A stretch of 64,000 nucleotides of DNA from an uncultured Polyangiaceae bacterium. Lineage in GTDB: Bacteria > Desulfobacterota > Binatia > UTPRO1. This document shows, piece after piece, positions 1,871-42,729 of this stretch (its first letter is position 1; each line of letters opens with the position of its first letter). The notes under the pieces are model-generated. The model ran no database searches and was not told the origin of the DNA. It was given only the letters and a program-made list of their open reading frames with translations. The translations under genes and the position numbers were made by a program. The stretch is taken from contig CAZWAX010000001.1 in NCBI GenBank assembly GCA_964631985.1, positions 943-64,942 of the forward strand, read 5' to 3'.

Positions 1871-2806
1871 ATGGTGAAACGCATACCCCTTCGACGATCG
1901 TCGACGTCTCGCATGATCGGCTTCGCGGCCGTGGCCGCCCTGCTCGGAGCGCTCGCCGGCCCCGTGCAGGCCCAGGTGTTCAAGGTCTGCGGCGACGTCG
2001 ACGACAACGACGTCGTCTCGGTCACCGACGGCGTGCAGGTGCTGCGCGCGGCCGCCGGGCTCACCAGCGACTGCACCGACGCGATCTGCGACGTCGACGT
2101 CAGCGGTGCCATCACGGTCACCGACGGCGTCACCATCCTCCGCAAGGCGGCCGGGCTCTCGATCAAGGAGAACTGCATCCCCGACGACGGCCGGATCAAC
2201 CAGCAAGTCGCGTATCTCCTCCAGTTCAGCCAGCCACTCGTCTCCGCCGTGCTGCCGACGATCATCCTCCGACGGAACGAGACGATCGACAACTCCTTCG
2301 AGTGCGACAACGGCGAGGACGGCCTGTACGAGGTCACCTTTCTCGACGGGCAACAAGACAGCTCGTTCTCCGACTGCTTCGTCGACAACGCCGTGATCAA
2401 CGGCGACGTCGAGAACGCCAACGACGACCCGATCCTGGCGATCGAGCTCGGTGACGCGCGCAACGACGATACGATCGGCTTCGAAGGGACCAACGGTGGC
2501 GCCCTCCTCGGCGTGAACATCGAAGGCGGCATCAAATACAGCGGGCGGCTGGACGGGTTACCGTCCTTCGAGCGCTTCGACACCAGCGACTTCCTGTTGG
2601 TCGTGAGCAACCTGCAGGTCGCCGCGACCGGCTATCCCCTCGGCGGCTCGATCTCCTACGAGTTCACCGAGGACTCCGCCGTGCCCGACATCCGCCGCGT
2701 CCGCGTCTTCTTCGACGGCTCGAATCTGGCGCGCGTCGAGGTGACGTTCACCGACGGGGGTTTCAGCTACTACAAGTTCGAGCTGCAGTTCCTCAATTTC
2801 ACCTAG
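1871..2806 (+). CDS. Secreted protein with two dockerin-like Ca-binding repeats
   Basis: Signal peptide MVKRIPLRRSSTSRMIGFAAVAALLGALAGPVQA. Repeats CGDVDDNDVVSVTDGVQVLRAAAGL and CDVDVSGAITVTDGVTILRKAAGL match the dockerin D-x-D-x-D...LR pattern. Confidence 0.7.
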   Translation: MVKRIPLRRSSTSRMIGFAAVAALLGALAGPVQAQVFKVCGDVDDNDVVSVTDGVQVLRAAAGLTSDCTDAICDVDVSGAITVTDGVTILRKAAGLSIKENCIPDDGRINQQVAYLLQFSQPLVSAVLPTIILRRNETIDNSFECDNGEDGLYEVTFLDGQQDSSFSDCFVDNAVINGDVENANDDPILAIELGDARNDDTIGFEGTNGGALLGVNIEGGIKYSGRLDGLPSFERFDTSDFLLVVSNLQVAATGYPLGGSISYEFTEDSAVPDIRRVRVFFDGSNLARVEVTFTDGGFSYYKFELQFLNFT

Positions 2807-7088: not shown

Positions 7089-10000
7089 CTACGGGCAGAC
7101 GGTGAGGCTGGTGATCCAGTCTTCGATGGCGGTGCTGCCGGTCGGGTCGGGGAGAAGGGTGGCGAGGGGCGGCATCTGATCCTGTCCGCGGAGCGTCGCG
7201 CGGAGCCAGAGGATCGACGCGTCGGCGTGACCGGGCTTCACGATGCGGGCATCGGCGACGCCGAGATCGCCGGCTTGTGGGAGGGCGTCGCAGAGACCGG
7301 TCGCACCCAATGGCGTCTCGGCCCGCAGGTCGATCGCCGTCGGCGCGGTACCGCCGGGATGATGACAATGCGCGCAATTCGCGTGCAGGGAGCTGCGGGC
7401 GCGGTCGGCGAGCGCGGCGCCGGTATCGGCCGGGTCGGCGAGACGCGGGAGGCTCGCGGGGCGCGCCGGCAGACAGTCCTCGAAGAGCCCGACGTGCTCG
7501 AAGGCCCGGAGCTGGTTGTCGCTCACGCCGTCGTAGTCGTGGCTGCGGTTCAACTGTGCCGTCTGTAGCCCCAGCGCACCGCCGGTCGCCGCGGTGTGAC
7601 AGCGGACGCAATCACCGCGGCTCGGGAAATAGTGGGTGTGGGCGATCGGCGTGCCCGGCTGCTGCGGATCGGTCACCGCGAAGGTCGCGGTCGTCGCGGC
7701 ATCGAGGAGATGGGCCTCGGTCTGGGCGTCGTTCCACACGTACGTGTACCCTTCCCACCCGTCGGTTCGGCGCACGAGGAAACGGGTCTCGAGCGCGCGG
7801 GTCGAAGCGGGATTACCGCGCTCGAGCTCGAGGCCGAACTCCTTCACGAGAATCGTGCCTTCCGGAAACTCCCAACTGCCCGCGGTCGCGTAGCCGATCG
7901 TCCCGGTCGCGGGGAGCGCGAGGAAGCGGCGCTTCCCGGCCCCGTCGGACCAGAGCGGCGACTGGACGTCGTACGGCACGAGACCCGGTGCCGGCGCCCG
8001 TGTCGAGAGATCGGCGAAGCAGCCGGTGGCCGAGAGGGTGCGCGGAAATTCGCCGGGGGACGCGCCGCTCGGACGCCGCAGACGGTGCAGCGTCCCGCCG
8101 ATCACGTTGGTGATGAAGATCTCGCCGTCGCGATCCTCGCCGAAGCTCGAGATGCCGGTGAACCCCGACGCCAGGGGCTGCACGACCGCGCTCGTCCCAT
8201 CCCATCGCAGCGCCGAGAGCCGCCCGTTGCAGTAGTCGCCGTAGACATAGGCACCGTACAGCTCCGGCAGCGCGCTGCCCCGGTAGACGACCCCGCCGGT
8301 GACGGAGCACGCGCCGTCGGTATGCGGATACGCCACGAGCGGCGCCGTCAACGTGCCGTCGTCACAGGCCATGGACGGGTTGTGGCAGGCGTCGCCTTCC
8401 TTCCTGCGCCACCCGTAGTTGGCACCGCGCTCGATGAGATCGATCTCTTCCCAACTTCCTTGTCCGACGTCGCCCGCCCACAGCGCGTGCGTCAGGCGAT
8501 CGAAGCTCATTCGCCACGGATTGCGGAGCCCGCGCGCCCAGATCTCGCCGCGTGCGCCCGGCGTGCCGATGAAGGGATTGTCCTCCGGGATGGCGTAGGC
8601 CAGGCCGGGGTCCGATCGGTCCACGTCGAGGCGCAGGATCTTCCCGAGCAGCACCGACAGATTCTGAGCGCGATTCCCGGGATCGCCGCCGCTTCCGCCG
8701 TCGCCGAGCGAGACGTAGAGCAGACCGTCCGGTCCGAAGGCGAGCTGGCCGCCGTTGTGGTTGTCGTAGGGCTTCTCGATCTCGAGCAGGACCGTCACGC
8801 TGGAAGGATCGGCGACGTCGGGATCGGCACTCACGCGATAACGGGCAATCACGGACCGCTGTGGCCCGGCCGCCGAGTAGAAGACGTAGAAGTAGCCGTT
8901 GGTCGCGAAGTCGGGATGGAAGGCCAGGCCGAGCAGCCCCTCCTCGCCGCCGTAGTTGCTCTCCGGGTCGAGGTCGAGAAACGTCGTCGCGTCGGTGGTG
9001 CCCTCGTCGTTCGCGAAGACGCGGATGCGGCCGGTCTGCTCGACGACGAAGAGACGGTTCCCGCCGTCGGGGGCGTACGTCACTTGCACCGGGGCGCTGA
9101 ACGTCAGGGCGGGAAAGGCGCGCGTCACCTGCAGGCTCGGAAACTGGTCGGGGGTTCCGTCGAAGCGGCAGGTCGTGTTGACGGGCCGGGTGGCGAGCCC
9201 GTACGGCGCCGCATCGCCGTCGCAGGCCCCGCTCGAGGTCGCGAACGGCGACGGCGTGAAGGTCGGCCCGGGCGGCGGAGTCGCCGTCCCCGTGCCGGTT
9301 CGCGTCGGCGTTGGGGTCCGGGTCGCGGTCCGCGTGGCGGTTGGGGTAGCGGTCGCGCCGGGCAACGGCGTCGCCGTGCTGGTGCGCGTCGACGACGGGC
9401 TCGCGGTCGGCGAGGCCGTCGTGCTCGGCGTGAGGCTCGCCGTCGGAACGGGCGTCGGCGTTCGCGTGGGCACCGGCACGTAGCCGGGACAGAACACCGG
9501 CAGGCGCGCGCGCCCGATCCGCGCGAGCAGCGCGTCGGCGCGCGGGTAGACGAAGGCCATCGTCTCGGCCACCTCGCACCCGGCCGTGCGGGTCACGCAG
9601 GCTCGCCAATCGCCGACGTCGTTGAGCGGACCGATCCCGAGCTCGGCACACGCCGAGGCGAGGGCGGCGGCGTTGGCGCCTTCCGCGACCGCGAGTGAGG
9701 CGAAGGGCACTTTCGGTTCCTGGCACGCGTCGTCGACGACCGCGGTCGCAGGATCGACCGCTGGGACTTTCGTGAACGCGGCGTCACAGGCGGCGGAGGC
9801 GCGCGTCCAGCACGCCTCCTCGCCGTTCTCGGGACGGCCGCACGCGAAGAGGGCGCCGAGGCACTTCCCGTAGGCCGAGCGCCAGACGGTCAGGTCACGC
9901 TCGCCGGCCCGCAACATCGCGGTCGCGCACGGGGCGGCCTGCCGGCCGTCGTTCCCGCTGACGATCACTGCCCGCGGCTCGTCGTACGCGGGCAGACAGG

Positions 10001-10622
10001 AAATACCCGTGAGCGACGAGAGCGCGCCGGCGGCATGGAGCAGGGCCGCCGTCCGCGGCACCGACGCGCCCATCGCCTGGGCTCCGGCACAGACCTCCGC
10101 GTCCGCCAGACACGTGATGGCCTGGTCGATGCCATCCACGACGTGCGGGACCCTAGGGCATCGCCCGAGCACATCGCCGAATCCGATGCCCCCCGCCGCG
10201 AGCAGGCTCGCCCCGTCGCAATGCTTGCGAATACTCTTCCGCAGACCCGCCAGAAGCGTGGCCTGCTTGTGATAGGTCTGCGCGCACGTGGTCGTCGAGC
10301 GGAGCGCGCACTTGGCGTCGTCCGGGCGACCCATGAGACATCGCACCAAGCTCCCGACGCATTTGGCCGCGTCGCGATGGCGCGCCGACGCATAGCGCCC
10401 GACCGCGGACGCCACGGTCTTCTGACAGCGCAACGTGGCGGCGACCTGCGGGTCCTGGACGGTCCGCGCTTCCACGGTGGCCGCGCACAGCGCCACCACG
10501 AGCGAACCCACCGCGGCGACGCGATGCCAGCGCGCGCACTCCCGGTCGCGAGGAACACGCGCAGGGAGCGGCGCCGAAGCACCTGAACGTACGTCAGGAG
10601 GAAAACCGGTGGCCACGTCCAT
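7089..10622 (-). CDS. Large secreted protein: N-terminal Cys-rich region, Pro/Thr linker, PQQ-dependent sugar (glucose/sorbosone) dehydrogenase beta-propeller, C-terminal dihaem c-type cytochrome domain
   Basis: [10 protein letters not shown]...[23 protein letters not shown]...RGLRNPWR matches soluble GDH/SGDH. Two CxxCH motifs (CVRCH, CAHCH) sit in the last roughly 250 aa. TPTPT linker. The 5' start is uncertain, as no clear RBS precedes the ATG at 10622. Confidence 0.7.
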   Translation of the reverse strand: [1177 protein letters not shown]

Positions 10623-10782: not shown

Positions 10783-13700
10783 TCAGGGGTTGCAGGCCAC
10801 CTTCAACGAGTCGACGTCCGACCGACCCGTCGTGTCCTCGGTGCGGAGGCGAATCGTCTTCCGAGTGAGACGATCGTTGCGGATGGGAATCGAGAGGTAG
10901 GCCGTCATGCAACGATCCTGCGTGGCGATCGCCGTGGTATACTGGACGATATTGACGTGCGGCCCCAGCACTTGATGGGCGCCCTGCGCCTGCAGCACGG
11001 CCATCAGATCGCGCCCCATCTCGGCGTCGACGTCGTTCCGGCTGTCGGGACGCGGGCTCTTGATGGTCACGGTCTTCACGTCCGAGGGGAAGCAGGCGCT
11101 GCCCTGGAGGCGTGGGTCGTTGTTGTTGATACAGATCAGGACGTGCGCCACGCACGCGCCGTTGGTCTCCCCGTCGAAGTCGGAACCGCCACCGTCGTTG
11201 ATGACGAAACTGTTCTGCTTGAGCGACTTCGGCCCGATCGGGGCATCGACGAAGAACTCGGTAACGCAATCGGTGGTCACGCTCCCACCGCCCGGGGCAC
11301 AACGACCCGGCGCGTTCTCGGTGCACCTGGGGAGCGCCGGAAAGGTCTCGCGCGAGGCCGCGTTGGCGACCACGTCGGCCGTGTAGAGGTAGGTGTCGTG
11401 GTAGCCGTTGCCCAGCCACAGATCGACCTGGTCGCCGAAATGCGGCCGACCGACGACGCCGTCCTGCCCGCCCGGGATCACGTTCTTCGCGACGATCGCG
11501 CCGCTCGCCATCTCAACCACGCTTCGACGGTTGGCGCCGCTGCCGAACGACAGGCCCGTCGCCGAGGTCGGACGAAGACCGTAGTTGGCGACGTCGACCG
11601 TGAAGCGCGCGCCGTCGGACGGCATGCCCGGCGGGAAGCCGACCGCCGGTTGCGGGGGAATGCTGTAGGCGCCGCCGCCGTTGATCAGCGTACCGTTCAG
11701 GTCGCCGTCGATGAAGCTGTTGAAGATGACGTAGTGGACCTTGCCCCAGAGGTAGTCGTCGACGTCGGTGGAGTTGGTGAACGCCGGCGCGAATCCGGCG
11801 CCCGCGAGCAGGGTGAGCGCGTCCTGCAGGCTCTTCACGAGGATGATGTCACGCTCCTCCTCGGCCGAGAGCGCGACCCCAGTGTCGTCGAAGAAGTTGA
11901 TGCCCGAGGCGCCGACGCCCGTGAACGGCATGCGGGTGAGTAGCCGGATCAGGCCGCGGATGCCCTCGGTGGTGCCCTGGCGATAATCGATCCCGGCGGC
12001 CGCGAGCGTGGGATCGAAGGTGCGGTTCATGAGCCGCCCGACCGCGACGTTGTAGAGCGTGGTCGCGACGCTATCGACGAGCTCTTGTGCCGTCGGCACG
12101 CCGGGATCGCCGGGCGTGTCGAACCCGGCGGGCGTGTTGCCCGTCCAGGCAGCAAGGCGGTTCCGCGCGTCGACGACGGTGGCGTTCAGGAGGCTCGAGA
12201 GCTCGACCGGCGCTCCGCCCATGCCGGCGTTGTCGACGGCGTCGATGAAGTACCCGACGAGCCGGCGACCTTCGAGCTGATTCACGTCGGCCTGCATGCG
12301 CTCCATGTCGGCCATCGAGATCGTCCCGTCTCCAGCCGGCGTTCCCGGCGGCGTCGGGATCAGGTTCAGCTCGCTCTTGATCAGCTCGGTGATGCGGGCG
12401 GCCCGGAACTCGTCGTACCCGGGGCTGAGATACGGTCCGGTGCCGGCGAGCGCCTCGTTCAGGACGTCGTTGTCGGCGGTGTTGCCGATGGGATCGTTGT
12501 TGGCGTTCACCCACCAGCCGGCGGGCGGGTTCTCGACCTGCGGGATCTGCGCGTCCGGGACGATCTCGTAGGGGACCGCCTGGGTCGCGGGCTGCGGGCC
12601 GCCGAGCGCCTTCCACTCGTTGCCGCCGGTGCCGTCGCGGATCAGGAAGGGCGGATTGCCGCTGAGCGTCCCGGCATCGAGGTCCTCGCGAATGGGAAAC
12701 TCGCCGCTCGCGAAGTACGCAATGTTGCCCGCCACGTCGGCGTAGCCCCAGTTCTGCGAGCCGAAGTCGAACAGCTGGAGCCCGGCCTTGAACGTGGCGA
12801 GATCGGTCGCGGTGTTCCAGATGTAGAAGGTCTCGAGCTCGCGGGTGGCGTAGTTCCCCGTGAACTTGACGGTGAGCGCCGTCCCCACCTGGTTCGGCAG
12901 GAACGGGTTCCCGACCGCGCCCGAGAACGGGATCGTGATGGTCTGCGGGAACACCGGGCCGTGCCTCGGCACCACCATGGCGCGCGGAGGGACGAAGTTC
13001 GCGAGCAGCCTGTTCACGTTCAGGATGCCGTTCACCGCGGGAATCGCGACTCCCATCGCCGCGGCGATGACCACGCGGTCGAGCGAGCCGACCGGCTCGT
13101 TGCCGTTCTCGATGTTCACGCGCACCAGGATCGGCGACTGCACCACCGGCTCGGGATTGCCCTGGTAGTAGCTGAAGAGATTGCCCGAGGCGTCGGTGAA
13201 CATGTCCTCGAGGTACCAATCGGTGACGTCGGCCGGATTGGTGGTCGAACCCCAGGCGATGCTCTCGTTGTGACCCTGAACGACGCCCGGGGCGCCGGCG
13301 AAGCCGATGCCGGTCGCGTTCAGGTCGCCGCCGCGATCCTTGGTATTGATGTGCACCTCGTAGAACGTCGCCGGGCTGCCCAGCCCGAGGTGAGGATCGT
13401 TAGCGTAGATGGGATTCCCGGTGTCGGTCACCGAGCCGTCGACCGCCCATTGGTTCGAGCCGACCGTGCCGCGCGCCCGGATCTCGCGCATGACCGGCTG
13501 GTCCATCAGCTTGGCGATGAACTCACGCGCCTTCGTGACGGTTTCCTTGCGGGCCTTCGCCAGCTGTCGCTGCTGTTCCTTGGTGAGCGCGCGCTTGCCC
13601 TTCCCCGCCGGCGCCGTGGCCTTGGCGTTCTTCGTCGCGGTGCCGGCCGCGGTCTTTGCGTCGGCGAGCATCGTCGCCTTGTCGCGCCGGAGCCCGGTCA

Positions 13701-14481
13701 ACGGGATCGGCGCGTTGTTGGCGTCGGGGACCGTGAACGCGTTCTCCGCCGGCTGCACCCGCGCCAGATCCTGCGCGAAGGCGGTGGTGCCGGTCGGGAC
13801 GCCGAGCCCGTCGGTGACGTCGGCGAGGTCACCGGTCGGCCCGTCGTCGAAATCGAACGAAAGCTGGAAGGTCTGCAGCTTGCCGAACGCCACCGAGTCG
13901 ACCGACACCCACGGAGCGATCGAGAGAATGTTCAGATTCGTGTACTCGGGCGGCAGGCTCCCGGTCGCGTTCGCGAACCCGATGAACTCGTTCACGCCGT
14001 CGGCATAGGCCTGGAGGAGACTCTGCACGGCCGGCGACAATGCATTGAACGAAGCGACCGCCGCCTGGCGGAAGCCCAACGACTGGAAGAAGAGGTCCTG
14101 AGTGACGTTGCTGATGTTGCCGGGGAACGGCGGCTGCTGCGCTTGCAGCAGGGTCGGACCGGTCTGGAAGTTGGGGAAGCCGAGGAGCTCGGACACCGTG
14201 CCGCTCGGGATCCGGCGGAAGACGTCCATCTGGAACATGCGTTCGCGGGCGTGAATGTTGCCGAGCGCGAACGCGGCGTCGTTCTGCGTCGAGGCGTAGA
14301 TGTGGGGGACGCCCTTCGCATCGCGCACCACGTCGACCGGGGCGCTCAGCTGCGGAAACGTCAGGGTCTGCGCGATCGGCAGGTCGGTGACGGGGTCCGC
14401 CTGCGCCGGCGCGACGCTCAGACACGACCACGCGAGGGCGACGGCGAGGATGAACGACGGGCGGCGACGGCGATGCGGCAT
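10783..14481 (-). CDS. Penicillin amidase (S45 Ntn-hydrolase) family protein with a roughly 200-aa C-terminal Cys-rich extension
   Basis: AGGAGG RBS, signal peptide MPHRRRRPSFILAVALAWSCLSVAPAQA. ERMFQMD motif and GSNQWAV (Ser-Asn-x-Trp beta-subunit N-terminal nucleophile). The C-terminal tail carries about 12 Cys. Confidence 0.8.
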   Translation of the reverse strand: MPHRRRRPSFILAVALAWSCLSVAPAQADPVTDLPIAQTLTFPQLSAPVDVVRDAKGVPHIYASTQNDAAFALGNIHARERMFQMDVFRRIPSGTVSELLGFPNFQTGPTLLQAQQPPFPGNISNVTQDLFFQSLGFRQAAVASFNALSPAVQSLLQAYADGVNEFIGFANATGSLPPEYTNLNILSIAPWVSVDSVAFGKLQTFQLSFDFDDGPTGDLADVTDGLGVPTGTTAFAQDLARVQPAENAFTVPDANNAPIPLTGLRRDKATMLADAKTAAGTATKNAKATAPAGKGKRALTKEQQRQLAKARKETVTKAREFIAKLMDQPVMREIRARGTVGSNQWAVDGSVTDTGNPIYANDPHLGLGSPATFYEVHINTKDRGGDLNATGIGFAGAPGVVQGHNESIAWGSTTNPADVTDWYLEDMFTDASGNLFSYYQGNPEPVVQSPILVRVNIENGNEPVGSLDRVVIAAAMGVAIPAVNGILNVNRLLANFVPPRAMVVPRHGPVFPQTITIPFSGAVGNPFLPNQVGTALTVKFTGNYATRELETFYIWNTATDLATFKAGLQLFDFGSQNWGYADVAGNIAYFASGEFPIREDLDAGTLSGNPPFLIRDGTGGNEWKALGGPQPATQAVPYEIVPDAQIPQVENPPAGWWVNANNDPIGNTADNDVLNEALAGTGPYLSPGYDEFRAARITELIKSELNLIPTPPGTPAGDGTISMADMERMQADVNQLEGRRLVGYFIDAVDNAGMGGAPVELSSLLNATVVDARNRLAAWTGNTPAGFDTPGDPGVPTAQELVDSVATTLYNVAVGRLMNRTFDPTLAAAGIDYRQGTTEGIRGLIRLLTRMPFTGVGASGINFFDDTGVALSAEEERDIILVKSLQDALTLLAGAGFAPAFTNSTDVDDYLWGKVHYVIFNSFIDGDLNGTLINGGGAYSIPPQPAVGFPPGMPSDGARFTVDVANYGLRPTSATGLSFGSGANRRSVVEMASGAIVAKNVIPGGQDGVVGRPHFGDQVDLWLGNGYHDTYLYTADVVANAASRETFPALPRCTENAPGRCAPGGGSVTTDCVTEFFVDAPIGPKSLKQNSFVINDGGGSDFDGETNGACVAHVLICINNNDPRLQGSACFPSDVKTVTIKSPRPDSRNDVDAEMGRDLMAVLQAQGAHQVLGPHVNIVQYTTAIATQDRCMTAYLSIPIRNDRLTRKTIRLRTEDTTGRSDVDSLKVACNP

Positions 14482-14590
14482 GGGGGTCCTCCTGGCTGAA
14501 CGACTGAAGATGGTCTGGCTGACGGACGGCACGGCAAGGATTCCTGGCCGAAAGATCGCGGCATTAGACGGCGGTTGGCTGCCGCCTGTC

Positions 14591-14618
14591 AAGAAAAAAG
14601 ACGCGCGACGATCGCGCG
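14591..14618 (-). terminator. Rho-independent terminator downstream of the thiolase gene
   Basis: On the minus strand: GC stem CGCGCGA-cga-TCGCGCG followed by TCTTTTTTCTT. Confidence 0.5.
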
Positions 14619-15966: not shown

Positions 15967-17331
15967 TCAGTGCGTGTGCCCGAGCTCGTCGCCGATCGCG
16001 AGACGCGCGAAGCTTCGCACCGCCTCGTTGTCGTGGGACTCGGCGATCGATGCCAGCATCACGCCTCCCTGCGGACCCGTGCGCGCGAGACCGAGCACGG
16101 CGGCGAGCGCCGCGCGCTCGCTGCCGTCGTCGACGACCGCGGCGAGCGGGCCGACCGCGACCGCCCCGAGCGCCCCGAGGCTTTCGGCCATGCCGTTCCG
16201 CACGCTCGCGTCGGAATCGTCGAGCATGCCGATGACGTCGGCGATCGCACGAGTGTCCGCGGCGTCCCCGCTCCCGCGGCGCGCGAGGAGCGCGCGCCCC
16301 GCGGCCAGGCGCACGATCGGCGCCGGGTCGTCGCGCAGGAACGTCACCAACCGTTCACGGGGGGCCTGTTCCCTGTCGACCTCCACCCCCACTGCCCGCA
16401 CGGCCGGATCGGCGTCCGTCAGCAGGCCCTCGACGCGGTCGGGGGAAAGCCCATCGGGAAGCACCGCCAGGACGCGATAGGCTTCGGCACGGATCGGGGA
16501 GGCGGGCTCGGTGAGCGCGAGCGCGGTCTCGCGTGTGCCGGGCAACCTGCGGCCGGCGGCAAAGCGAAGCGCCGCGACCCGTAGCGTCGGCTCGCGTCCC
16601 GCATTGCGCGCGGCGCTCAACAGCGCCGCCGTACCCTCCGCCCCGGGGTCGACGTCTGCGGGGTAAGCCTCGAGGAGCGTCAGTGCTTCGCTCGCGACCG
16701 CGGGGTGTCCGCCGGCCACGATCTCGGCGAGTCGCTGCACGCCCGGTGTCCCGTCTCGCGCCGCGGGGCTCATGACGAGGTAGTGCTGGAGGGCGAAGAG
16801 CGTCAGGCCATCGGGCTGCCGGAGGAACGCCTCACCGCCCGAGGCGACGACCAGCACCGGACCGCTCTCCGCCCCGACCGGAAAGCGCTTGCGCCACAGG
16901 CTCTGCGTCGGCAACGCGTCGAGTACCACTAAGACGCGCTGCCCGTCCTCGAAACGCACCTGGCGCGCCTTGGAAAGCTCCTCCCACGCGATCGTCACCG
17001 TGTCGCCGAGGCGAACGTCCCCACCGAGCGCGGTATCGACCCGCAGCGCGCCGCGCCAGCCCTGAACGTCGAGGCTTTCGACTTTCGAGACGATCCCGGC
17101 GACGACGGCCTGCGCGCGCTTGGCTTCGGCAATGATCCCGACGCCACCCGCCGCGGCGGGCCGCAGCCGCCCGGCAGAGGGAGGGTTCGCCACGGGAACC
17201 GGCGACGGCATCGGCGATGCCGCCATGGTGGGCCTCGCGATGCCCCCGTCCTGCCCCTCGGGGGCACACGACGTCGCGACCGCGACGACGACGGCGATGC
17301 CGAGCACCGCCGCCGTCGCGGCCTTTGTCAC
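15967..17331 (-). CDS. HEAT-repeat lipoprotein
   Basis: GTG start overlapping the upstream TGA (GTGA coupling). N-terminus MTKAATAAVLGIAVVVAVATSCAPEG is a lipoprotein-type signal. Repeated Ala/Leu/Arg-rich HEAT-like units (DPAVRAVGVE..., DSDASVRNGMAESLGALG). Confidence 0.65.
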   Translation of the reverse strand: MTKAATAAVLGIAVVVAVATSCAPEGQDGGIARPTMAASPMPSPVPVANPPSAGRLRPAAAGGVGIIAEAKRAQAVVAGIVSKVESLDVQGWRGALRVDTALGGDVRLGDTVTIAWEELSKARQVRFEDGQRVLVVLDALPTQSLWRKRFPVGAESGPVLVVASGGEAFLRQPDGLTLFALQHYLVMSPAARDGTPGVQRLAEIVAGGHPAVASEALTLLEAYPADVDPGAEGTAALLSAARNAGREPTLRVAALRFAAGRRLPGTRETALALTEPASPIRAEAYRVLAVLPDGLSPDRVEGLLTDADPAVRAVGVEVDREQAPRERLVTFLRDDPAPIVRLAAGRALLARRGSGDAADTRAIADVIGMLDDSDASVRNGMAESLGALGAVAVGPLAAVVDDGSERAALAAVLGLARTGPQGGVMLASIAESHDNEAVRSFARLAIGDELGHTH

Positions 17332-20300
17332 GGTGCCAGAGGCGCGTCGAATCCCGGATTCCCGTCGACGTCGGCGTACAGTGCGTTGGTGTGGCCAAGC
17401 GCCGTCACGCCGCTCTGCCCGAGATTGCCGTCGATGAGATTCGCGAGCGTGGTGTTGCCGGCGGTCGCCAGGTTGGCGGGATGCACCGGGAACATCGGCC
17501 GCGAGATGCCGTCGGTGCCCTTCACGACGACCACGAACCAGGTGTCCTCGGTCATGTTGGTGAACGGGATGGAGACGCTCGCCTCTCGCCGCTCGCCGCC
17601 GGTCACGAGCGGATGCACGTTGTTGGTCGTGATCGTGAAGTCCGCGGGGGCGTTCCGCGTCAGCGTCGGGGTGGCGCTGAAGAGCTCCGGCGCGTCGCTC
17701 GTCGGCGAAGGGATCGTCGACGCGTTGGCATACACGAGGATCTGGTCGAAGTCCGCCCAGAGCGGCGCCTGGACTTCGATCTCGAGCACCAGGCCGGCAA
17801 CCGGGTTGATCACCGTGAGCAGCGTGTCGCCGGCGAGCGTGAGATCGGCGACGTTGGACGCGTTGGTCGCGTCGACCAGGCGGGTCTGCACGTAGATCCC
17901 CTGGCCACCGACGGCTTTACCGGCGCGTACCGACTGCGCCATCTCCGCCGGGGAGATGCTCGGCGGATCGTCGGTCGACGAGGCCGACCACGTCCGGCCA
18001 CCCGCCGTCTCGAGGTTGGCGAAGGCGTGGGTGTCGGTGTCGGTGATCGCGGTCGCGATGAGCCCCTGGTTCAACAGGTTGAACCAGATCCCGATCCGCT
18101 CGTCGAGGAACTGCGACTGGTGAGCGCGGTTGTGGCCGTTCCAGAGCTCGAGGGCCTCGAAGTGCTGGAAGAGGTTGCCGCTTGCCGGATCCATGCGGAA
18201 GTCGAGCTTGCGCGCCGGACTGACGAACGACTGCGGCGGCACCAGCGAGGTGTCGATCTCCATCGGCACGAAGTGCGAGTCGATGTGGTTGATCTGGACG
18301 ACGGTGTCGACGGTCGCCGTGGGGCTGTTGGTCGCGAGCGTCAGCACCTCCGCCGGCGTCATGATGTAGTTGCCGAGCGACTTGAAATCCTCGCCGGCCG
18401 GCGCCGGACGACCCCAGTCGGTCGAGCCGCCAGTCACGAGACTCGGATCGATGGTCATCGGGTAGGCGTTGTAGTGGCCCGCGTCCCAGGTGGTGATCTC
18501 CTCGCCGATGGTCGAGGTGACGAACGCCGAGAAGCCCATCGCCGCGATCCGCGGATTCAGATCGGTGTGGACGTGGTGGTCGGTCATGACGACGTTGTCG
18601 ACGCCCTCGCCCGCGAACTGCCGCACGCGGTCGGACTGGCTGACGCGCGAGTCGGCACTGGCGATGCCGTGGACGTGGTGATCCGAGGAGATGAAACCGG
18701 CGGTGTCGAGCACGCGGGCGATCTGCGCCGAGACGTTCGTGGTCACGCCCCCCGTCACCGTGAGCGCCTGCTCGAACAGCGAGTACTCGCCCCCGCGCGA
18801 CACGTAGATGCGATAGCTTCCCGGCTCGAGGTCGAAGTCCACCTCACCGGCCGCGTCGGTGTACAGGGCGCGCACGATGCCGAACGGGTGCTTGTCGGTC
18901 TGATCGCGGAACCAGCCGGTGTCGGCGCTGAAGGTCGGCTCGGGCGACGCATCGAAGCCGACGACACTCACGCGCGCCGGGACGGCGTCATTGTTCTCGT
19001 CGACGACCGTCACGTCGACGTGACCGGGCGCGGGCAGATCGAAATTCTTCACGAGCGGCGTCACCTGGCTGACGCTGCCGAGACTCACCGGCGGCGTCGC
19101 CGCGCCACCCACGTACATCGTGCCCTCACGCCAGGCGACGAAGCCGTTCGAGCCGATCGGCATCGTCCCTTCGTAGCAACCGTCGGGACCCGTCACCCAC
19201 GTCGAGCGGAGGAGCGTAAGGGCGCCCATCAACACCGGGCCCGCACTGACGCGCGCACCGGGAGCGGGCACGCCGGCCACCGTGACACACCCGGAGACCT
19301 TCCCGGAGAGAGTTCCCTTCACCGCGTTCTCCAACGTGATCAGGTTGCCGCCGCTGCCGTCGCCGACGCCGAAGTACCGGACGAAGGATTTGCTGCCGCC
19401 TGCCGGCACGAAGAACTTCGGATTCCCCGAGACCAATGCCGTCAGGACCGATTCGCTGTGCAGGACGTACGACACGCCGCTGACCGAGAAGTACCCCGTG
19501 CCTTCGTTCGACTCGGCGATCGGAATGGTCGTGAGACCGTAGTCGACGCCCTGGGCCTCGCCGTAACCGAAGTAGCTGAAGACCCCCATGTTTTGGCCGA
19601 GGAGACGGACACCGATACCCTGCTCGCCGCTGCCCCATTGCTCGAGCTCGCCGGCCGCGTTGATGAAGTCGCCCACGAAAAGCCCGAGGGTGGTCGCCTC
19701 GTTGTTGAAGACCGTCGTGACGAGCTTCAGGTAGGCGGCATCCGGCTCGAGGATGTAGTCCGTGCAGCCCTCGACCTCCTGGTCGTTGTCGTCGGCGGAC
19801 GGGGGGAAGTCCAGACCCACCTCCTCGATCACCGTCGACGGGTTCACGAAGTCGAGGATGTCGTCGGGGCCGCAGGTGCGCACGATGGCGGCGCCGCCAT
19901 CGCTTCCATCGTTCACCACTACGAGGGTCGTCGCGTTGATGACGGTTTCGATGTTGATGCTGGGCTGCATCTCCAGGAAGTTGTCGAGGCCGGGATGACC
20001 GACCAGCTCGGCGTCGATGAGATTCCCGCCGAAGCCGCCGACGCTGTACATCTCGCGCACGGCTGGCTTCTGGATGATGAACCGCGCGAGCTCGTTCGCG
20101 ATCATGGTGTCGCCGAGCTGGCCATGCGCAAGGGGTCCGGTGATGAGCTCGCCGCTGTTCGTGATCTCGTGCGCCGTCGCGAACCCGATGCAGGAGTCGT
20201 TGGCCACGGCATCATCGAAGAGGTCGCAGTCGGAGGTGAGCCCCGTCGCGCCGCGAAGCGCGCGACAGAAATGGCACCGGGTCGAGCTGACGGCGCACGT

Positions 20301-21098
20301 AGCCACCTGGGCGGCCGTGGCCCCCGTCGGCAGGCACTTGCCCCCGAACATCTCGACCAACGGCTCTGCCGTGGCGCCACAGGTGTCACTCATGGCGTCG
20401 AGGAGCGCGTTCGTCTCCTTGGCGATCTTTCCCTTCGCATCGGCGGCGAGCGCCGTCTCGATCGCCGTCTGCAGCTCGGCGGCCGACGTGACCGCGGGGT
20501 CGATCTTCCCGGCAAGCGCGCTCTTCGCCGCTCCCTGGAGCTCTTTCCACAGCGTGTCATAGAGCTTGCCCGTGCCCTTGAGCGTTGCGGGCTGACAGGA
20601 GACACCCGCCTTGTCGAGGTAACCGAGCTTCGACGACACGAGGGGCTGAATGGCCGGTCCGAACAAGTCCCGCAGGATCGCCCGACTCTGCGACGCGGCC
20701 GCGCCGGCGATGTTGTCGGCGCCGGCCGTGCCGAACGTCGGAGGCTCGGCGGTGCACTTGCCGGTCTCGGTCTTCGTGACATCGGCGACCTTCTTGGCGA
20801 GCCCGCCCTTCGGGTCGTTGGTCAAGCACGCATCGACCGTGCGCTCCTGATCAGGATTGCCGAGGCTCTCCGTCTTGAGATTCTGCCGGGCCGTCACGCA
20901 CTTGGTATTGGCCTTGCCCTGCGTCTGCGCCACCTTCCCCGCGCTCTTGTAGAGCGCGTTCAGACACTTCTGTTGCGCACTGGTCTGCTGCGCGTGCGTG
21001 ACGCTCGCACTCGCGAGCATCAAGAAGAGGGCTGCTGCCGCAACCATCGAAAACGGCAGGCGTAGGCATCGGGAGTCGCGAGGGGAAGCAATAGACAT
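17328..21098 (-). CDS. Very large secreted multidomain protein: Cys-rich N-terminus, carboxypeptidase-regulatory-like beta-sandwich segments, PHP/CehA-like DHHVH metal-hydrolase-like motifs
   Basis: AGGAG RBS before the ATG at 21098. Long signal peptide ending ...LFLMLASASVTHA. Motifs SSDHHVHGIASADS and MTDHHVHTD. LEPGSYRIYVSRGGEY resembles the CarboxypepD_reg fold. Functional call is tentative. Confidence 0.6.
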   Translation of the reverse strand: MSIASPRDSRCLRLPFSMVAAAALFLMLASASVTHAQQTSAQQKCLNALYKSAGKVAQTQGKANTKCVTARQNLKTESLGNPDQERTVDACLTNDPKGGLAKKVADVTKTETGKCTAEPPTFGTAGADNIAGAAASQSRAILRDLFGPAIQPLVSSKLGYLDKAGVSCQPATLKGTGKLYDTLWKELQGAAKSALAGKIDPAVTSAAELQTAIETALAADAKGKIAKETNALLDAMSDTCGATAEPLVEMFGGKCLPTGATAAQVATCAVSSTRCHFCRALRGATGLTSDCDLFDDAVANDSCIGFATAHEITNSGELITGPLAHGQLGDTMIANELARFIIQKPAVREMYSVGGFGGNLIDAELVGHPGLDNFLEMQPSINIETVINATTLVVVNDGSDGGAAIVRTCGPDDILDFVNPSTVIEEVGLDFPPSADDNDQEVEGCTDYILEPDAAYLKLVTTVFNNEATTLGLFVGDFINAAGELEQWGSGEQGIGVRLLGQNMGVFSYFGYGEAQGVDYGLTTIPIAESNEGTGYFSVSGVSYVLHSESVLTALVSGNPKFFVPAGGSKSFVRYFGVGDGSGGNLITLENAVKGTLSGKVSGCVTVAGVPAPGARVSAGPVLMGALTLLRSTWVTGPDGCYEGTMPIGSNGFVAWREGTMYVGGAATPPVSLGSVSQVTPLVKNFDLPAPGHVDVTVVDENNDAVPARVSVVGFDASPEPTFSADTGWFRDQTDKHPFGIVRALYTDAAGEVDFDLEPGSYRIYVSRGGEYSLFEQALTVTGGVTTNVSAQIARVLDTAGFISSDHHVHGIASADSRVSQSDRVRQFAGEGVDNVVMTDHHVHTDLNPRIAAMGFSAFVTSTIGEEITTWDAGHYNAYPMTIDPSLVTGGSTDWGRPAPAGEDFKSLGNYIMTPAEVLTLATNSPTATVDTVVQINHIDSHFVPMEIDTSLVPPQSFVSPARKLDFRMDPASGNLFQHFEALELWNGHNRAHQSQFLDERIGIWFNLLNQGLIATAITDTDTHAFANLETAGGRTWSASSTDDPPSISPAEMAQSVRAGKAVGGQGIYVQTRLVDATNASNVADLTLAGDTLLTVINPVAGLVLEIEVQAPLWADFDQILVYANASTIPSPTSDAPELFSATPTLTRNAPADFTITTNNVHPLVTGGERREASVSIPFTNMTEDTWFVVVVKGTDGISRPMFPVHPANLATAGNTTLANLIDGNLGQSGVTALGHTNALYADVDGNPGFDAPLAP

Positions 21099-21347
21099 CG
21101 GGTAGCTCCTTGCTCTTGGGGTTGGGCAGCGTCCCTGGCTCAGGGAAGCGCTCGGCTTGCGCATTAGAGCCGACTCCCCCCGCCAGGTCAACGAAAAACT
21201 CCTGTTTCTGGACGGCGAGGCACGAAAGCGGCGCAAAAATGCGCCGACCCCGGCAGGTGTTACCCTCTCGCGGTCGCGCGGGCCTCAGCGGGCTTGGCGC
21301 TGCTCAGCCGGCGATCCCCGCCACTGGAGTCGACCTGACCTCCCGGG

Positions 21348-38388: not shown

Positions 38389-41300
38389 TCAAAGACTCCC
38401 AGCGTCAGGATCGGGCGTCATGATAGGCCACGGTCGACCGGAGGCAAGATCGGGATGGCGCGGCCCGGCTTCCGGTGAGCCGTACTCATCCCAGATCCGG
38501 TCTACTTGGTTCAGGCAACGCGCGGCTGCGTCCAACGCCCCACCGTCTGTCGTCAGTGCAAGAAGTTTCTCGCGAAGTTCAACGGCAGGGACGGGAACAA
38601 TCGTGAACGCCCCCTTCAAATTCTCGGAAGGTACATGCTGGGTGACCACGCGCCCGATCGCCCGCCGCGAGATGAGAGAGCGCCAACCTCCCTCAAAGCT
38701 GAGTAGAAGTAGTACGCCTTCGGCATCGGGATTCTCCACGACGGCCTCGGCGAGCATTGCTAGGCCCGGCGTTGATGCGCCGTTGCTGAGGAACCCATAG
38801 ACGTGGGCACGCAGCGCAGGATGTGCGTCGAATAACTCGCCGATGTGGCCGGCCATGTGCCAGCGATCGAGGTTCCCGTCCGCAAAGGAACCGCCTGCAG
38901 CCAAGTCCACAAAGCGGCGCGCGGCGGAGAGGGTTCTCCGGCGCGTGACGGCGTCGCGCCACACGTGACTGTCATAGAAGGCGGGACAGGCTTCAGCAAA
39001 AGCAAAGAGCGCGTTTTCAGCGTCAACACCAGGTGCTTCGCCGAAGGCACGGATCATTTCCTCCAAACGATCGGGCCTTCGTTGCTCCTCCGGCAGGGTC
39101 TGAACAACAGTGAGCGCCTCAGCTGGAAAATTCGTGAACGGCAGTAGTCGCAGCCATTCACTGACTTCGTAGCCATCACTCAGGATCCAGCTTTGGGTTC
39201 TGCCAGCCTCCATGACCTCAGCGAGGCCTGTCTTCACGACGCCGATGTCGACGATGTGACCGGACAGCACTTGGTTCAGAAGTAGTGCGGCCCGTAAGCG
39301 GCGTGGTGCGATGGCGATCAGACTTTGAACCGTCGCATCACGCTGGCCATGCGGCAGCCGCGATGCCACGACGCCAAGCGCGAGGCCGAGCTTTTTCCGC
39401 TCTTCCGGCACGCCGTCGGCGATCAGTGGCTCAAGCGCTGCGAAGATTGTCTCCGCTTCCACCGAAGTCGCTGAAGGATTGGCGGCGCGAGCGGCTCTTT
39501 TCTCTTCCACGCGTGAGAAATCCGGACCGCCGAAAACCCGCCTGCTGTTCGGCGGATCGTTCGCCTTCTGCCATCTGGCCGCGAGGACGTGCGCGGCAGC
39601 TTCGCCGAAATGGTCGTCGATAAGATACTCTCGCATCAAAGCGGCTGTCTCCGGAGCGTCGATGGACAGGAACGCGTGCTGGTACTCATTCGTATGCGGT
39701 GTGATGGCTTCGGTCGCGGCTTCGCTGTGGGCTCGCCCACCGGCTGCTTGCGCTTCGGCACGGAAGGCGCGATAGTGGCGGAGGTTGTCGTCCAGCAAGC
39801 GCCTCAACAATGGCAGCAGCGCGATAGAGGGGGCCTGGCTTGCTAGCGTTGCGATGCTAGCCGTCTGCCAGCGCTTCGCGGTACCGGAAGCCAGCATGCG
39901 GTCGCCCCACTCCTGGGCGATTGCCTGAATAGTCGCACGTGAATCAGCGTCGAACGGTCTGCCGTGATCGCCCTCCCCACTTGGATGACGCGAGAGAAGC
40001 CCTGCCAAGCGCGCCATTTGGTCGTTATCGGCTTGCAGAGAGCGGGCATGGATGGCGGCAACGAGACTGGCGCCGCGGGCATGCGCGAGCCGACGCAAAA
40101 GGGTGTGGTAGCGGTCACTTGCGGCTTGGTCGTATGTACCGTCCACATTCAGCCGCGCCCGTGCTTCGTTCAGTGCCTCGATCATGCGGCCGACGGCCAA
40201 CGGTCCGAGCGCGGAAGCCGCGGCTTCTCCGCGGTCATGCGGCCGGGTGGCGTCCATCAGCGCAAGTTCCAGTAGTGCGTCGTCTTCGAGACTGAAACAG
40301 GCTGCAGCGAGAATATCATCGGCTCCGTAGAATAAGGTTCGCCCGGTGCGCACGCGGGTGAGGAGGCCGCTCGCGACAGCACGGGGATAACGCTGGCGCG
40401 CTTCGTAGACGAGATGAACCGCCGCGTCCCGCCCCTCGGTTTCCATCGACCCGATGAAGTCGGCCAGCTCTAAAGCCCGGTCTTCGGCAAAATCCGAGTA
40501 CACGATCGAGTGAAGCCGGTCGTAATCCGAAACTCCTGTCGCGATCTCCCGCTCGCGCGCAGCGGCGAGGCGCTCCTTGACGCGCTCGTCGGGAACGTTG
40601 TGGACGAACCTGTTGCGCGCAACCAGGTCGATGGTCTCGTCGCCAGCGTACCGCAGCACGTCGGCGACGTGTCGATCCGCGCCCCGAAAAGCCAGCGCCT
40701 CAACCGTCGAGACTTGAACTTCAGTCGCGGGATCATCGCTTGCGATAGCGGTCGCGAGATCGAGACCGTCGATGCCGCTGTTGGATGCCATCTCGTGCAG
40801 CAGGACGGTCCGCACCTTGGCCGACAGCCCACAGATCCTCGTCACGGCATCACTCCCGAGGATTGACGGTCGGAACCGGCTGCAGTTGCGCAGCGCCTTG
40901 AGACTCGTCTGATCGTCCTCGTGCGTGATGAGCGGCCAGACCGCGTCAAGGAACTCAGGGCGTCCCGACGCGAGCATAAAACGCAATGCGCGATCCACCT
41001 TGCCCGGCGTATGCCAGCGAGCGACGAGCCCCCGGATTGTTGGGGCGATGGGCGCCCACACTTCCTCCGTCGCCCTGAAGATCATCTCGGCCGCGAGAAT
41101 GGGATCGACTTCGAACGCCGAGAGAATGGCCTTGCCGCACACGGCCTGCTGGTGCGCATCGCTGCGCGCCATACGTTCCACCGCGAAGAGAATGGCTTCT
41201 TCCCATATGGGAAGGTTGAATACTTCAGCCTTCAGCGCCTCGCGGCTCCTCGGATCATCGGCCGCCGCGGTAGTCCGGCGCTCTACGGAGTGAGAGGCAT

Positions 41301-42729
41301 ACCACTCCTGAAACTGCTGGTGCTGGAAAGAGTAGCCCAGCGTGCCGCCCGTGCGGATCAGAACATGATTGCTGGCGAGCACGTCCAGCACGTCGTCCGG
41401 CTGGGACGGGATAGTGATCTGCCCGTCCCCGATCAGCGTTGCCTGGGTTTGAGAGACGGTCCGCCGGGCGTTCGTGTCGGCGATAGACGTGTTCTGTGTC
41501 CGCGTGGCGAACACGGCGAGACACTCCAGATGATCCTGCTGGAAACCATGCACAACGTCGCGCAGCGTCTCGGCGCGACGGGCATCAGTTTCGTGCACAG
41601 TCACGAAGTGCCGCAGGAGTTCCTCCTTGGTCGTTGGGAAGGGCGCGCCTTCAGGAAGGGAGAGCAGTGCGGTGAGATAGAGTGGGATCGTTACGAGCTC
41701 GCGGACACCAGGCGTGCGCCAAGCCTGATCGACGATCCTCAGGCCTGCTTCGCCGCGCATCGCGGCGGCGATCTGCGTTTGCTGCTTTTGGTTGAGCGGC
41801 AGGAGATCGACGCGCATCCCGACGAAAGGAACGTCGAGGGCGTGCTTGCGGGTCGAGACGATGAAGCCGAGCTCAGGTAGCTCCGCCATCAGGCGATCGA
41901 CCTGTACGCGCGCTCGCGTCCGCCCGTCCGGACTCAATTCGTTCCAGCCGTCGAGCAGCAGGACAACACCGGGTTTGGCGGCGACTGCACGGAAGTCGTC
42001 TTCCGATATGGCCTGGAACCCCTGACGAGTGAGGATGGACCCTAGCAGTGACAACGTTTGCGTGGCCCAATCGGCGAGCGGGATGATGATGGGCGTGCCT
42101 CCGGCGTCGGCGATGAGGGCTTGGGCGATCTGGAATAGTGTCGTCGTCTTTCCTGTGCCGGGTCCGGCGACGAGGATTAGATCGTCGAGCGACGTGACGA
42201 CGCGCGCGAGCGCGGTTGTCGTCGCAGGCTGACCAAAGCCTTCTACCTCCAGCGTGAGCGCTACGGCACTGGATGGCCATTTGGTTGTGCGGCGGAAAAC
42301 AGAGAGATCCGCCTCAGCAGCGGCGCGAAGACGATCCGCCGGTTGCCCGACGGCAATAGGCAGAGGCCCACGGGACGCTTCGTTCTGCAACACGCGGCGT
42401 CGAGCGTCGTCTTCCGCTAGCTTCTTCCATTCGCGTAGACGCTCGATGGTGAATTCTGGATCCTTATCGTCGATAGCCTTGCCGTGATTGCGACACATCC
42501 AGATGCCGTTGCTTGCGGAACGGCGTTCCGCGGATGACATGTTTGCGTCACCGCGGGGGCTGCGGTCGGATTCCACGGCGCCGATGATGTGCGCCGCCGT
42601 GCCGAGATTGATTTCACCGCCGACGGTCAGCGCACGACAAGATGGATAGGAGCAAAGCCAGCCCGCGCGCTTAGCGATCTGGGTCTTTATCCGGTCTGTG
42701 AACTCGTCTCTGTTTCTGTTTCCTGGCAT
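38389..42729 (-). CDS. STAND-class NTPase: N-terminal HNH-like nuclease motif, NACHT NTPase module and long C-terminal HEAT/ARM-like repeats (antiviral-STAND/Avs-like architecture)
   Basis: HNH-like segment: C-x2-C (CSYPSC)...AAHII...N-x4-C-x2-H (NGIWMCRNH). Walker A: LILVAGPGTGKTTTL. NACHT-type Walker B: VVLLLDGWNEL. Roughly 900 aa of helical repeats follow. Confidence 0.8.
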   Translation of the reverse strand: MPGNRNRDEFTDRIKTQIAKRAGWLCSYPSCRALTVGGEINLGTAAHIIGAVESDRSPRGDANMSSAERRSASNGIWMCRNHGKAIDDKDPEFTIERLREWKKLAEDDARRRVLQNEASRGPLPIAVGQPADRLRAAAEADLSVFRRTTKWPSSAVALTLEVEGFGQPATTTALARVVTSLDDLILVAGPGTGKTTTLFQIAQALIADAGGTPIIIPLADWATQTLSLLGSILTRQGFQAISEDDFRAVAAKPGVVLLLDGWNELSPDGRTRARVQVDRLMAELPELGFIVSTRKHALDVPFVGMRVDLLPLNQKQQTQIAAAMRGEAGLRIVDQAWRTPGVRELVTIPLYLTALLSLPEGAPFPTTKEELLRHFVTVHETDARRAETLRDVVHGFQQDHLECLAVFATRTQNTSIADTNARRTVSQTQATLIGDGQITIPSQPDDVLDVLASNHVLIRTGGTLGYSFQHQQFQEWYASHSVERRTTAAADDPRSREALKAEVFNLPIWEEAILFAVERMARSDAHQQAVCGKAILSAFEVDPILAAEMIFRATEEVWAPIAPTIRGLVARWHTPGKVDRALRFMLASGRPEFLDAVWPLITHEDDQTSLKALRNCSRFRPSILGSDAVTRICGLSAKVRTVLLHEMASNSGIDGLDLATAIASDDPATEVQVSTVEALAFRGADRHVADVLRYAGDETIDLVARNRFVHNVPDERVKERLAAAREREIATGVSDYDRLHSIVYSDFAEDRALELADFIGSMETEGRDAAVHLVYEARQRYPRAVASGLLTRVRTGRTLFYGADDILAAACFSLEDDALLELALMDATRPHDRGEAAASALGPLAVGRMIEALNEARARLNVDGTYDQAASDRYHTLLRRLAHARGASLVAAIHARSLQADNDQMARLAGLLSRHPSGEGDHGRPFDADSRATIQAIAQEWGDRMLASGTAKRWQTASIATLASQAPSIALLPLLRRLLDDNLRHYRAFRAEAQAAGGRAHSEAATEAITPHTNEYQHAFLSIDAPETAALMREYLIDDHFGEAAAHVLAARWQKANDPPNSRRVFGGPDFSRVEEKRAARAANPSATSVEAETIFAALEPLIADGVPEERKKLGLALGVVASRLPHGQRDATVQSLIAIAPRRLRAALLLNQVLSGHIVDIGVVKTGLAEVMEAGRTQSWILSDGYEVSEWLRLLPFTNFPAEALTVVQTLPEEQRRPDRLEEMIRAFGEAPGVDAENALFAFAEACPAFYDSHVWRDAVTRRRTLSAARRFVDLAAGGSFADGNLDRWHMAGHIGELFDAHPALRAHVYGFLSNGASTPGLAMLAEAVVENPDAEGVLLLLSFEGGWRSLISRRAIGRVVTQHVPSENLKGAFTIVPVPAVELREKLLALTTDGGALDAAARCLNQVDRIWDEYGSPEAGPRHPDLASGRPWPIMTPDPDAGSL

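Follow-up and report, generated by a model that had tools for sequence, protein, structure and literature searches.

What is a repeat resembling those of dockerins doing on a multicopper oxidase (MCO) and on a small exported protein of an uncultured Binatia bacterium? Both proteins are encoded in a 64,000-nt stretch of DNA (hereafter the window; positions 943 to 64,942 of contig CAZWAX010000001.1, assembly GCA_964631985.1), in which they share a repeated motif that we analyze here. Cellulosomes are where dockerins are classically known, as a high-affinity 'plug', and synthetic biology makes heavy use of them; to our knowledge, their role outside cellulolytic Firmicutes is largely unknown. The window has a GC content of 65%, and homologues of the smaller protein come from metagenome-assembled genomes (MAGs) labelled 'Polyangiaceae bacterium UTPRO1', 'Deltaproteobacteria bacterium' and 'Candidatus Binatia bacterium'. 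The name UTPRO1 denotes an order within Binatota, a phylum whose genomes were once placed in Deltaproteobacteria, Myxococcota or Desulfobacterota (PMC8262859). The source organism is an uncultured member of the Binatia (Binatota).

A six-frame regular-expression scan of the window for xVTDGVxxLRxAAG found four copies of the motif and none elsewhere. Two of them (2021-2059 and 2117-2155, + strand) lie inside the open reading frame (ORF) at 1871-2806, which encodes a 311-aa protein, and the other two (47882-47844 and 47759-47721, - strand) inside the ORF at 46146-48020, which encodes the 624-aa MCO, in agreement with the initial annotation, which had placed the motif twice in each protein. The limits of both genes are consistent with the N-termini of their homologues. 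Together, two repeats make up one module of about 70 aa, and exactly two ORFs of the window carry it. When a hidden Markov model (HMM) built from an alignment of 36 related modules (A1) was run against all six-frame ORFs, the 311-aa protein and the MCO were matched with E 3e-36 and 9e-28, respectively; there was no third copy in the window, the next best ORF reaching only E 0.89. These values put the repeats far beyond chance and confine them to the two genes. The two modules share 53% identity at the protein level and 74% at the DNA level and are therefore old paralogues; a recent duplication was rejected on the same figures.

Homology and predicted fold place the module in the dockerin superfamily, as a divergent member. 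This assignment is based on profile-profile comparison, a profile search of PDB sequences, the predicted fold and the conserved Ca2+-ligand positions. Alignment A1 was compared by hhalign with an alignment of 18 modules (A4) cut from proteins that score 184-282 bits on Pfam Dockerin_1 (PF00404), and the two matched with 98.4% probability (E 4.4e-15) over 61 columns spanning both repeats. Among PDB sequences, the top seven matches of the module profile are cellulosomal dockerins, aligned over both repeats, followed by aequorin-type EF-hands. Taken singly, 33 of the 36 modules match Dockerin_1 at E ≤10, the best at 9e-6. A template-free AlphaFold2 (AF2) model of the module (predicted local distance difference test score, pLDDT, 86) shows the three-helix fold of dockerins, and its top 36 Foldseek matches in PDB are all dockerins, the best being 6kgf_D (template modelling score 0.72/0.81, root-mean-square deviation 1.8 Å, about 60 residues). 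In both loops, the ligand positions 1, 3, 5, 9 and 12 are conserved as D/N/S/T/D in at least 33 of the 36 sequences (columns D35 / D29+N4 / N,S,D / T,S / D35 in loop 1 and D35 / D33+N3 / S,N,D / T28 / D36 in loop 2). This is the ligand pattern of an F-hand, with loop 1 of the MCO module as the exception, and it is consistent with Ca2+ binding. The description 'dockerin-like Ca-binding repeats' given in the initial annotation is borne out by these comparisons. In addition, four-cysteine modules of other lineages, which match the module profile at about E 1e-24 to 1e-30, exceed the Dockerin_1 gathering threshold of 22.9 bits (29.5 bits for P0193, 35 for P0205 and 73.9 for P0125). Among these three, tandem pairs of the module stand beside DUF4215 (Myxococcus-type Cys-rich) repeats, and one protein with three modules has Tyr in place of Cys at the first position, extending the four-cysteine subtype beyond Binatia-type proteins.

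In the 311-aa protein the module occupies aa 36-106 (1976-2188, + strand), with cysteines at positions 40, 68, 73 and 102 and Ca2+ loops at D42-D53 and D74-D85, as defined by profile, fold and ligand evidence. In the MCO, the module HMM (E 1.6e-27) and the alignment delimit a divergent four-cysteine module at aa 31-109 (47694-47930, - strand). Its loop 2 is canonical (DMNGDGHMTVTD); its loop 1 carries a two-residue insertion and degenerate ligands (CGHTSGDSRQAVTVTD) with no ligand pattern, and its inter-repeat Cys-Cys linker is 13 residues long. Both the degenerate loop 1 and the 13-residue linker are kept in the three closest orthologues (P0263-P0265). Judged by sequence, the MCO module is the more derived of the two.

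No sequence of A1 lacks any of the four cysteines, and the full set recurs in 293 of 356 distinct modules; the remainder are either truncated alignments or ordinary Firmicutes dockerins that have none of the four. Cys 1 stands at position -1 to the conserved Gly preceding loop 1, Cys 2 and Cys 3 border a linker of 2-13 residues, and Cys 4 closes the module, often as Cys-Pro. In cellulosomal dockerins the residues at -1 to -3 and the C-terminus form a non-covalent intramolecular clasp, which stabilizes the Ca2+-bound fold and supports cohesin binding (PMC3821032). Because Cys 1 occupies the -1 position of this clasp and Cys 4 the end of the module, we infer by analogy two disulfides that would form once Sec has exported the protein, a Cys1-Cys4 clasp and a Cys2-Cys3 linker loop; a local loop between Cys 2 and Cys 3 also fits their variable spacing of 2-13 residues. 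The ScaA dockerin of Ruminococcus flavefaciens offers the closest parallel, in that a residue at -1 to -3 contacts the C-terminal residue, as the -1 and terminal cysteines would here; however, the known clasps act by stacking or electrostatic contacts, whereas the one in Binatia would be covalent (PMC3821032). Loss of cysteines is nearly all-or-none among the 356 modules, so that covariation is uninformative on their pairing. Neither the Binatota genome paper nor the searchable literature elsewhere mentions a four-cysteine dockerin subtype, and no description of disulfide-bonded dockerins or of Binatota dockerins was found in the searchable literature.

The module resembles the type I dockerins of cellulosomal Clostridia (PF00404; 1OHZ_B, 6KGF_D, 4FL4) in its length (about 60-70 residues in both), in its tandem pair of 12-residue Ca2+ loops, each leading into a helix, in a short middle helix, in an internal symmetry with near-identical repeats, as in dockerins with a dual binding mode, and in its terminal position on secreted enzymes. 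In contrast to the Firmicutes dockerins compared, it has the four invariant cysteines and the helix motif VTDGVQxLRxAAGL, and it usually lies at the N-terminus directly after the signal peptide; in addition, its host is probably diderm and non-cellulolytic, no cohesin was found, and its Pfam score is under the threshold. Dockerin-like modules outside cellulosomes have been reported in archaea of the ANME group and in Geobacter; their carriers are not cellulolytic, substrate-binding proteins and copper oxidases being among them, and a scaffoldin is often lacking (PMC9012536, PMC6199725). The four-cysteine subtype of Binatia differs from them in being distinct, expanded, very uniform and mostly attached to an orphan helix-in-barrel domain. 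At the level of annotation, Geobacter FN3 genes encode dockerin, cupredoxin and laccase domains (PMC6199725); a dockerin on a diderm copper oxidase is therefore not unprecedented.

How widely is the module distributed? A HMMER scan of 1.84 billion cluster representatives (clusters at 50% identity) with the module HMM matched 4386 proteins at E ≤1e-3, among whose weaker members are ordinary Firmicutes dockerin proteins, and 462 clusters at E ≤1e-10; in Binatia MAGs the module is abundant. In the strong matches it is always terminal on a Sec-exported protein, immediately behind the signal peptide or else at the very C-terminus, and the C-terminal copies stop abruptly in ...CP. The carriers include DUF5122 and SBBP propellers, Lcl_C, BNR, gluconolactonase, HtaA, CBM30 and Big_2 domains, and peptidases of families M64, M23, M10 and S8; the commonest architecture is a protein of about 300 aa comprising module, helix and beta domain, as in the 311-aa protein. 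Meanwhile, a DNA-pattern scan of 185,579 species genomes, whose matches include chance ones in unrelated high-GC genomes, located true double repeats, among the matches listed, only in Binatia-type MAGs, with at least 5-7 loci per genome. One 20-kb locus (L118:10001-16125) has four module genes in a row, encoding two module-plus-barrel proteins of about 290 aa, a third of 546 aa that has a Cys-rich extension, and an S8 protease of 892 aa, and neighbouring module genes also occur at four further loci (L088, L021, L075 and L113). Between otherwise unrelated carriers the module is 57-72% identical and the rest of the carriers is far less conserved, as would be expected for dockerins of one species sharing a cohesin. 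By all appearances of these sequences, the module in Binatia is a portable terminal tag on many unrelated exported proteins.

We consider it fairly probable that the module serves as a docking tag, dependent on Ca2+ and clasped by a disulfide, through which many proteins that Binatia export by Sec are tethered to one shared partner in the envelope. In this model, two tandem F-hand (EF-hand-like) Ca2+ loop-helix repeats would fold into the dockerin three-helix bundle; after Sec export, two disulfides would form, one as an N-to-C clasp, a covalent version of the intramolecular clasp, and the other as an inter-repeat loop; and the module would then dock its carriers, in a Ca2+-dependent manner, onto a shared partner in the cell envelope, possibly at the cell surface. 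A cohesin that has diverged beyond the reach of Pfam may be this partner, or else a receptor of another kind, and the MCO and the 311-aa helix-in-barrel protein would be two clients of one system.

Several observations weigh against this reading. On the side of the module itself, Dockerin_1 gave no match at E ≤1 with the full-length 311-aa protein or MCO; the isolated module of the 311-aa protein scored 16.0 bits (E 0.015) and that of the MCO gave no match at E ≤0.1, so that the Pfam search suggested by the initial annotation leaves both window modules below 22.9 bits; other Binatia modules reach about 20 bits. NCBIfam likewise gave no dockerin match with the full-length proteins, and the kinship came to light only with isolated modules and profiles. 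The module structure is a prediction made by AlphaFold, which was trained on dockerins, and disulfide pairing is not readable from the model coordinates. Moreover, the MCO module, with its degenerate loop 1, may bind perhaps a single Ca2+. On the side of the partner, Pfam Cohesin (PF00963) was found neither in ten large or neighbouring proteins of the window, nor in four 20-kb Binatia contexts (about 80 kb) and one 20-kb context of an MCO orthologue, both with precomputed Pfam annotation, nor in the list of 25 Pfam families recorded for 87 carriers of the module. A narrow, clostridial CipA-type cohesin HMM run on about 1 Mb of DNA gave no match. These cohesin searches were shallow, and none of them spanned a whole genome. 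In addition, many bacteria and archaea have dockerin-like modules with no scaffoldin or known cohesin and of unclear function (PMC9012536, citing Peer et al. 2009). The initial annotation had read the repeats as a cell-surface cohesin-dockerin docking system and had called for a search for cohesin-like partners; that search produced no candidate and the system is not demonstrated. From the sequence data, a docking system is a plausible and reasonable hypothesis, but unproven.

The MCO bears on the role of the module in localization. Its gene (46146-48020, - strand) is intact and encodes a three-domain MCO of the CueO/CotA type, as judged by its Pfam domains, copper motifs and orthologues. Besides a Sec-type signal peptide and the N-terminal dockerin-like module, the protein has the Pfam domains Cu-oxidase_3, Cu-oxidase and Cu-oxidase_2 and all four copper motifs: HAH230, HPH279, HPWHQH543 and HCHIVEHEDIGM605 (HCHIVEHEDIGM). 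The catalytic core (aa ~165-624; 46149-47528, - strand) is homologous to MCOs of about 510-530 aa in Anaeromyxobacter and Geobacter, and such module-free MCOs cover about 77% of the query at 53-60% identity. The module is carried by only the three closest orthologues (78-92% identity). In the next clade (75-84% core identity; relatives P0267-P0280), a lipoprotein signal (…LAACGS…) and a Met/Gly-rich domain of about 200 aa stand at the position of the module, and more distant relatives have Tat-lipoprotein signals or plain signals. Comparison of these N-termini indicates that the localization device of the MCO clade has been swapped repeatedly, and an exchange of a membrane tether for the module would fit a localization role.

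Three side observations on the MCO may be added. Just past the module, aa 109-130 (47694-47600, - strand) form a linker with extra cysteines (CPQSCCYVRDGSFFGPGGDC), of which the orthologues have two at the equivalent place; the sequence suggests a small disulfide hairpin, with one Cys possibly unpaired in the source genome. The GC content at third codon positions (GC3) of the gene is 0.84, and the gene lies in the lower-GC part of the window. The 78% orthologue sits in an unrelated gene context.

The 311-aa protein (1871-2806, + strand; defined by its ORF, homologues and an AF2 model) consists of a signal peptide, the module and a helix-in-beta-barrel domain. Residues 1-35 (1871-1975, + strand) form a Sec-type signal peptide with a basic n-region, a hydrophobic core and an AxA site, probably cleaved at ...GPVQA/QVF. 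The same layout is present in the homologues, and the AF2 model (pLDDT 87.6) has a helix at 11-27 and low pLDDT at 31-36. Orthologues in Binatia MAGs (50-92% identity) are all named 'hypothetical protein' and have no Pfam domain. The gene stands alone between convergent and divergent housekeeping genes for a zinc-dependent alcohol dehydrogenase (Zn-ADH), a glutathione S-transferase (GST), a 4HBT thioesterase and a GntR-aminotransferase. Its position between Zn-ADH and the GST/4HBT/GntR genes is kept in a 7-Mb genome, and the closest genomes compared show about 80% DNA identity, with synteny around the gene.

The C-terminal domain of about 200 aa (2189-2803, + strand) is an orphan. It matches no Pfam or NCBIfam family, Foldseek found no match for the barrel, and a search with the domain alone recovered only the orthologous group, always unnamed and always with the module. 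In the AF2 model it comprises an amphipathic helix (aa 111-133), 12-13 beta strands and the conserved pair Cys145/Cys169. The domain is most likely a soluble barrel wrapped round a hydrophobic helix. Its topology is like that of the translocators of type Va autotransporters (EstA, 3KVN; NalP, 1UYO), a likeness that does not amount to membership. Several features favour the soluble form: throughout the family the strands are hydrophobic on one face and charged on the other, a hydrophobic stripe runs along the helix, some of the strands span no more than 5-8 residues, the Cys pair is conserved, the C-termini are variable with no conserved outer-membrane protein signal, and the module has cysteines of its own, whose wide spacing would make it a poor autotransporter passenger. 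EstA and NalP differ in these features, and a type Va autotransporter was rejected on account of the charged strand face, the hydrophobic helix, the variable C-termini and the lack of a match to Pfam Autotransporter. One might guess that the barrel binds a hydrophobic ligand.

The docking-tag reading has to be weighed against other accounts of the same data. A system independent of cohesins is possible, and we put it forward tentatively: a disulfide-clasped tag on a large share of the exported proteome would bind an envelope receptor of a new kind, or the part of receptor would fall to the barrel of the ~300-aa family, with head-to-tail arrays on the surface as the result. The tagged proteins would then be oxidases, proteases, propellers and many helix-in-barrel proteins that may carry hydrophobic ligands.

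It is rather unlikely, in our judgment, that the module is a self-contained Ca2+-binding, disulfide-stabilized structural domain that has no dedicated partner and aids folding, stability or solubility. The failure to detect a cohesin in the scans would agree with such a domain, as would the weak matches to EF-hand Pfam models (EF-hand_9 in 34 of the 36 modules) and the fact that non-cellulosomal dockerin-like modules without cohesins are common and unexplained (PMC9012536). However, a stability domain does not need a terminal position or helix surfaces (VTDGVQxLRxAAGL) that hardly vary between unrelated carriers numbering in the hundreds; in alignment, the conserved residues fall on the helix positions through which dockerins contact cohesin (STD..LKR vs VTD..LR); and in the MCO the module takes the place of a lipoprotein anchor.

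Improbable, in turn, is a sorting or secretion signal read by export or processing machinery, in the manner of the C-terminal domains of the type IX secretion system or of PEP-CTERM/exosortase tags. Its strictly terminal position, the many unrelated exported carriers, the expansion in one lineage and the C-terminal copies ending in ...CP are what such a signal would show, but the module occurs at either end of the protein, its N-terminal copies follow an ordinary Sec signal peptide, and it forms a folded domain, probably with disulfide bonds, whose homologue is known as a binding module. No genes for export or sorting machinery were found alongside the module genes in the contexts examined.

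There is only a slim chance that the Ca2+ sites of the module bind a non-protein component of the envelope, such as a polysaccharide, lipopolysaccharide or a mineral surface. Extracellular modules commonly bind carbohydrates with the help of Ca2+, and no protein partner was found; yet the conserved surface is hydrophobic and alanine-rich (LRAAAGL), better suited to protein-protein contacts, and we know of no dockerin that binds a non-protein ligand through its Ca2+ sites. Finally, although GC makes up 65% of the genome and A, G and V abound in the motif, a chance or low-complexity likeness of alanine/glycine-rich high-GC sequence can be dismissed, being refuted by the HMM E-values, which leave the next ORF far behind, by the hundreds of conserved homologues and by the confident AF2 model.

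Elsewhere in the window, the base composition shifts from a GC content of 0.68-0.71 (GC3 about 0.9) in the first 20 kb to 0.62-0.64 (GC3 about 0.7) from 24 kb on; a genomic island could account for the two parts (1-22000 and 24000-64000), as could a join made in assembly. Immediately downstream of the MCO gene, a 1446-aa STAND NTPase with a NACHT domain and an NCAB2 C-terminal domain (38389-42729, - strand) adjoins a 701-aa protein (43324-45429, - strand) with no Pfam or PDB-sequence match, and the two may work as a pair in defence or signalling. At 7089-10622, 10783-14592 and 17328-21236 (all - strand) lie the genes for three exported proteins of very large size, none with the module: a 1177-aa glucose/sorbosone dehydrogenase with a C-terminal CAHCH haem-c motif, a 1269-aa protein of the penicillin-amidase family and a 1302-aa protein with a weak CarboxypepD_reg match only and no PDB-sequence relative. 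The Cys-rich N-termini of the dehydrogenase and the 1302-aa protein look by eye like those of P0193 and P0205, a likeness that BLASTP did not support.

The four-cysteine subtype escapes standard annotation: it falls under the Pfam threshold, has no NCBIfam model, and its homologues are all named 'hypothetical protein'. All the same, the exported protein families that bear it number in the hundreds, in an uncultured soil phylum of global distribution, and its carriers include a laccase-like oxidase. A partner, if there is one, would define how Binatia organize their extracytoplasmic enzymes, and it could supply a redox-stabilized, orthogonal pair of the cohesin-dockerin type for protein engineering; if none exists, the long-standing puzzle of orphan dockerins is sharpened. 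Should the system prove independent of cohesins, dockerins would be general envelope-organizing tags in a diderm phylum, with no link to cellulose.
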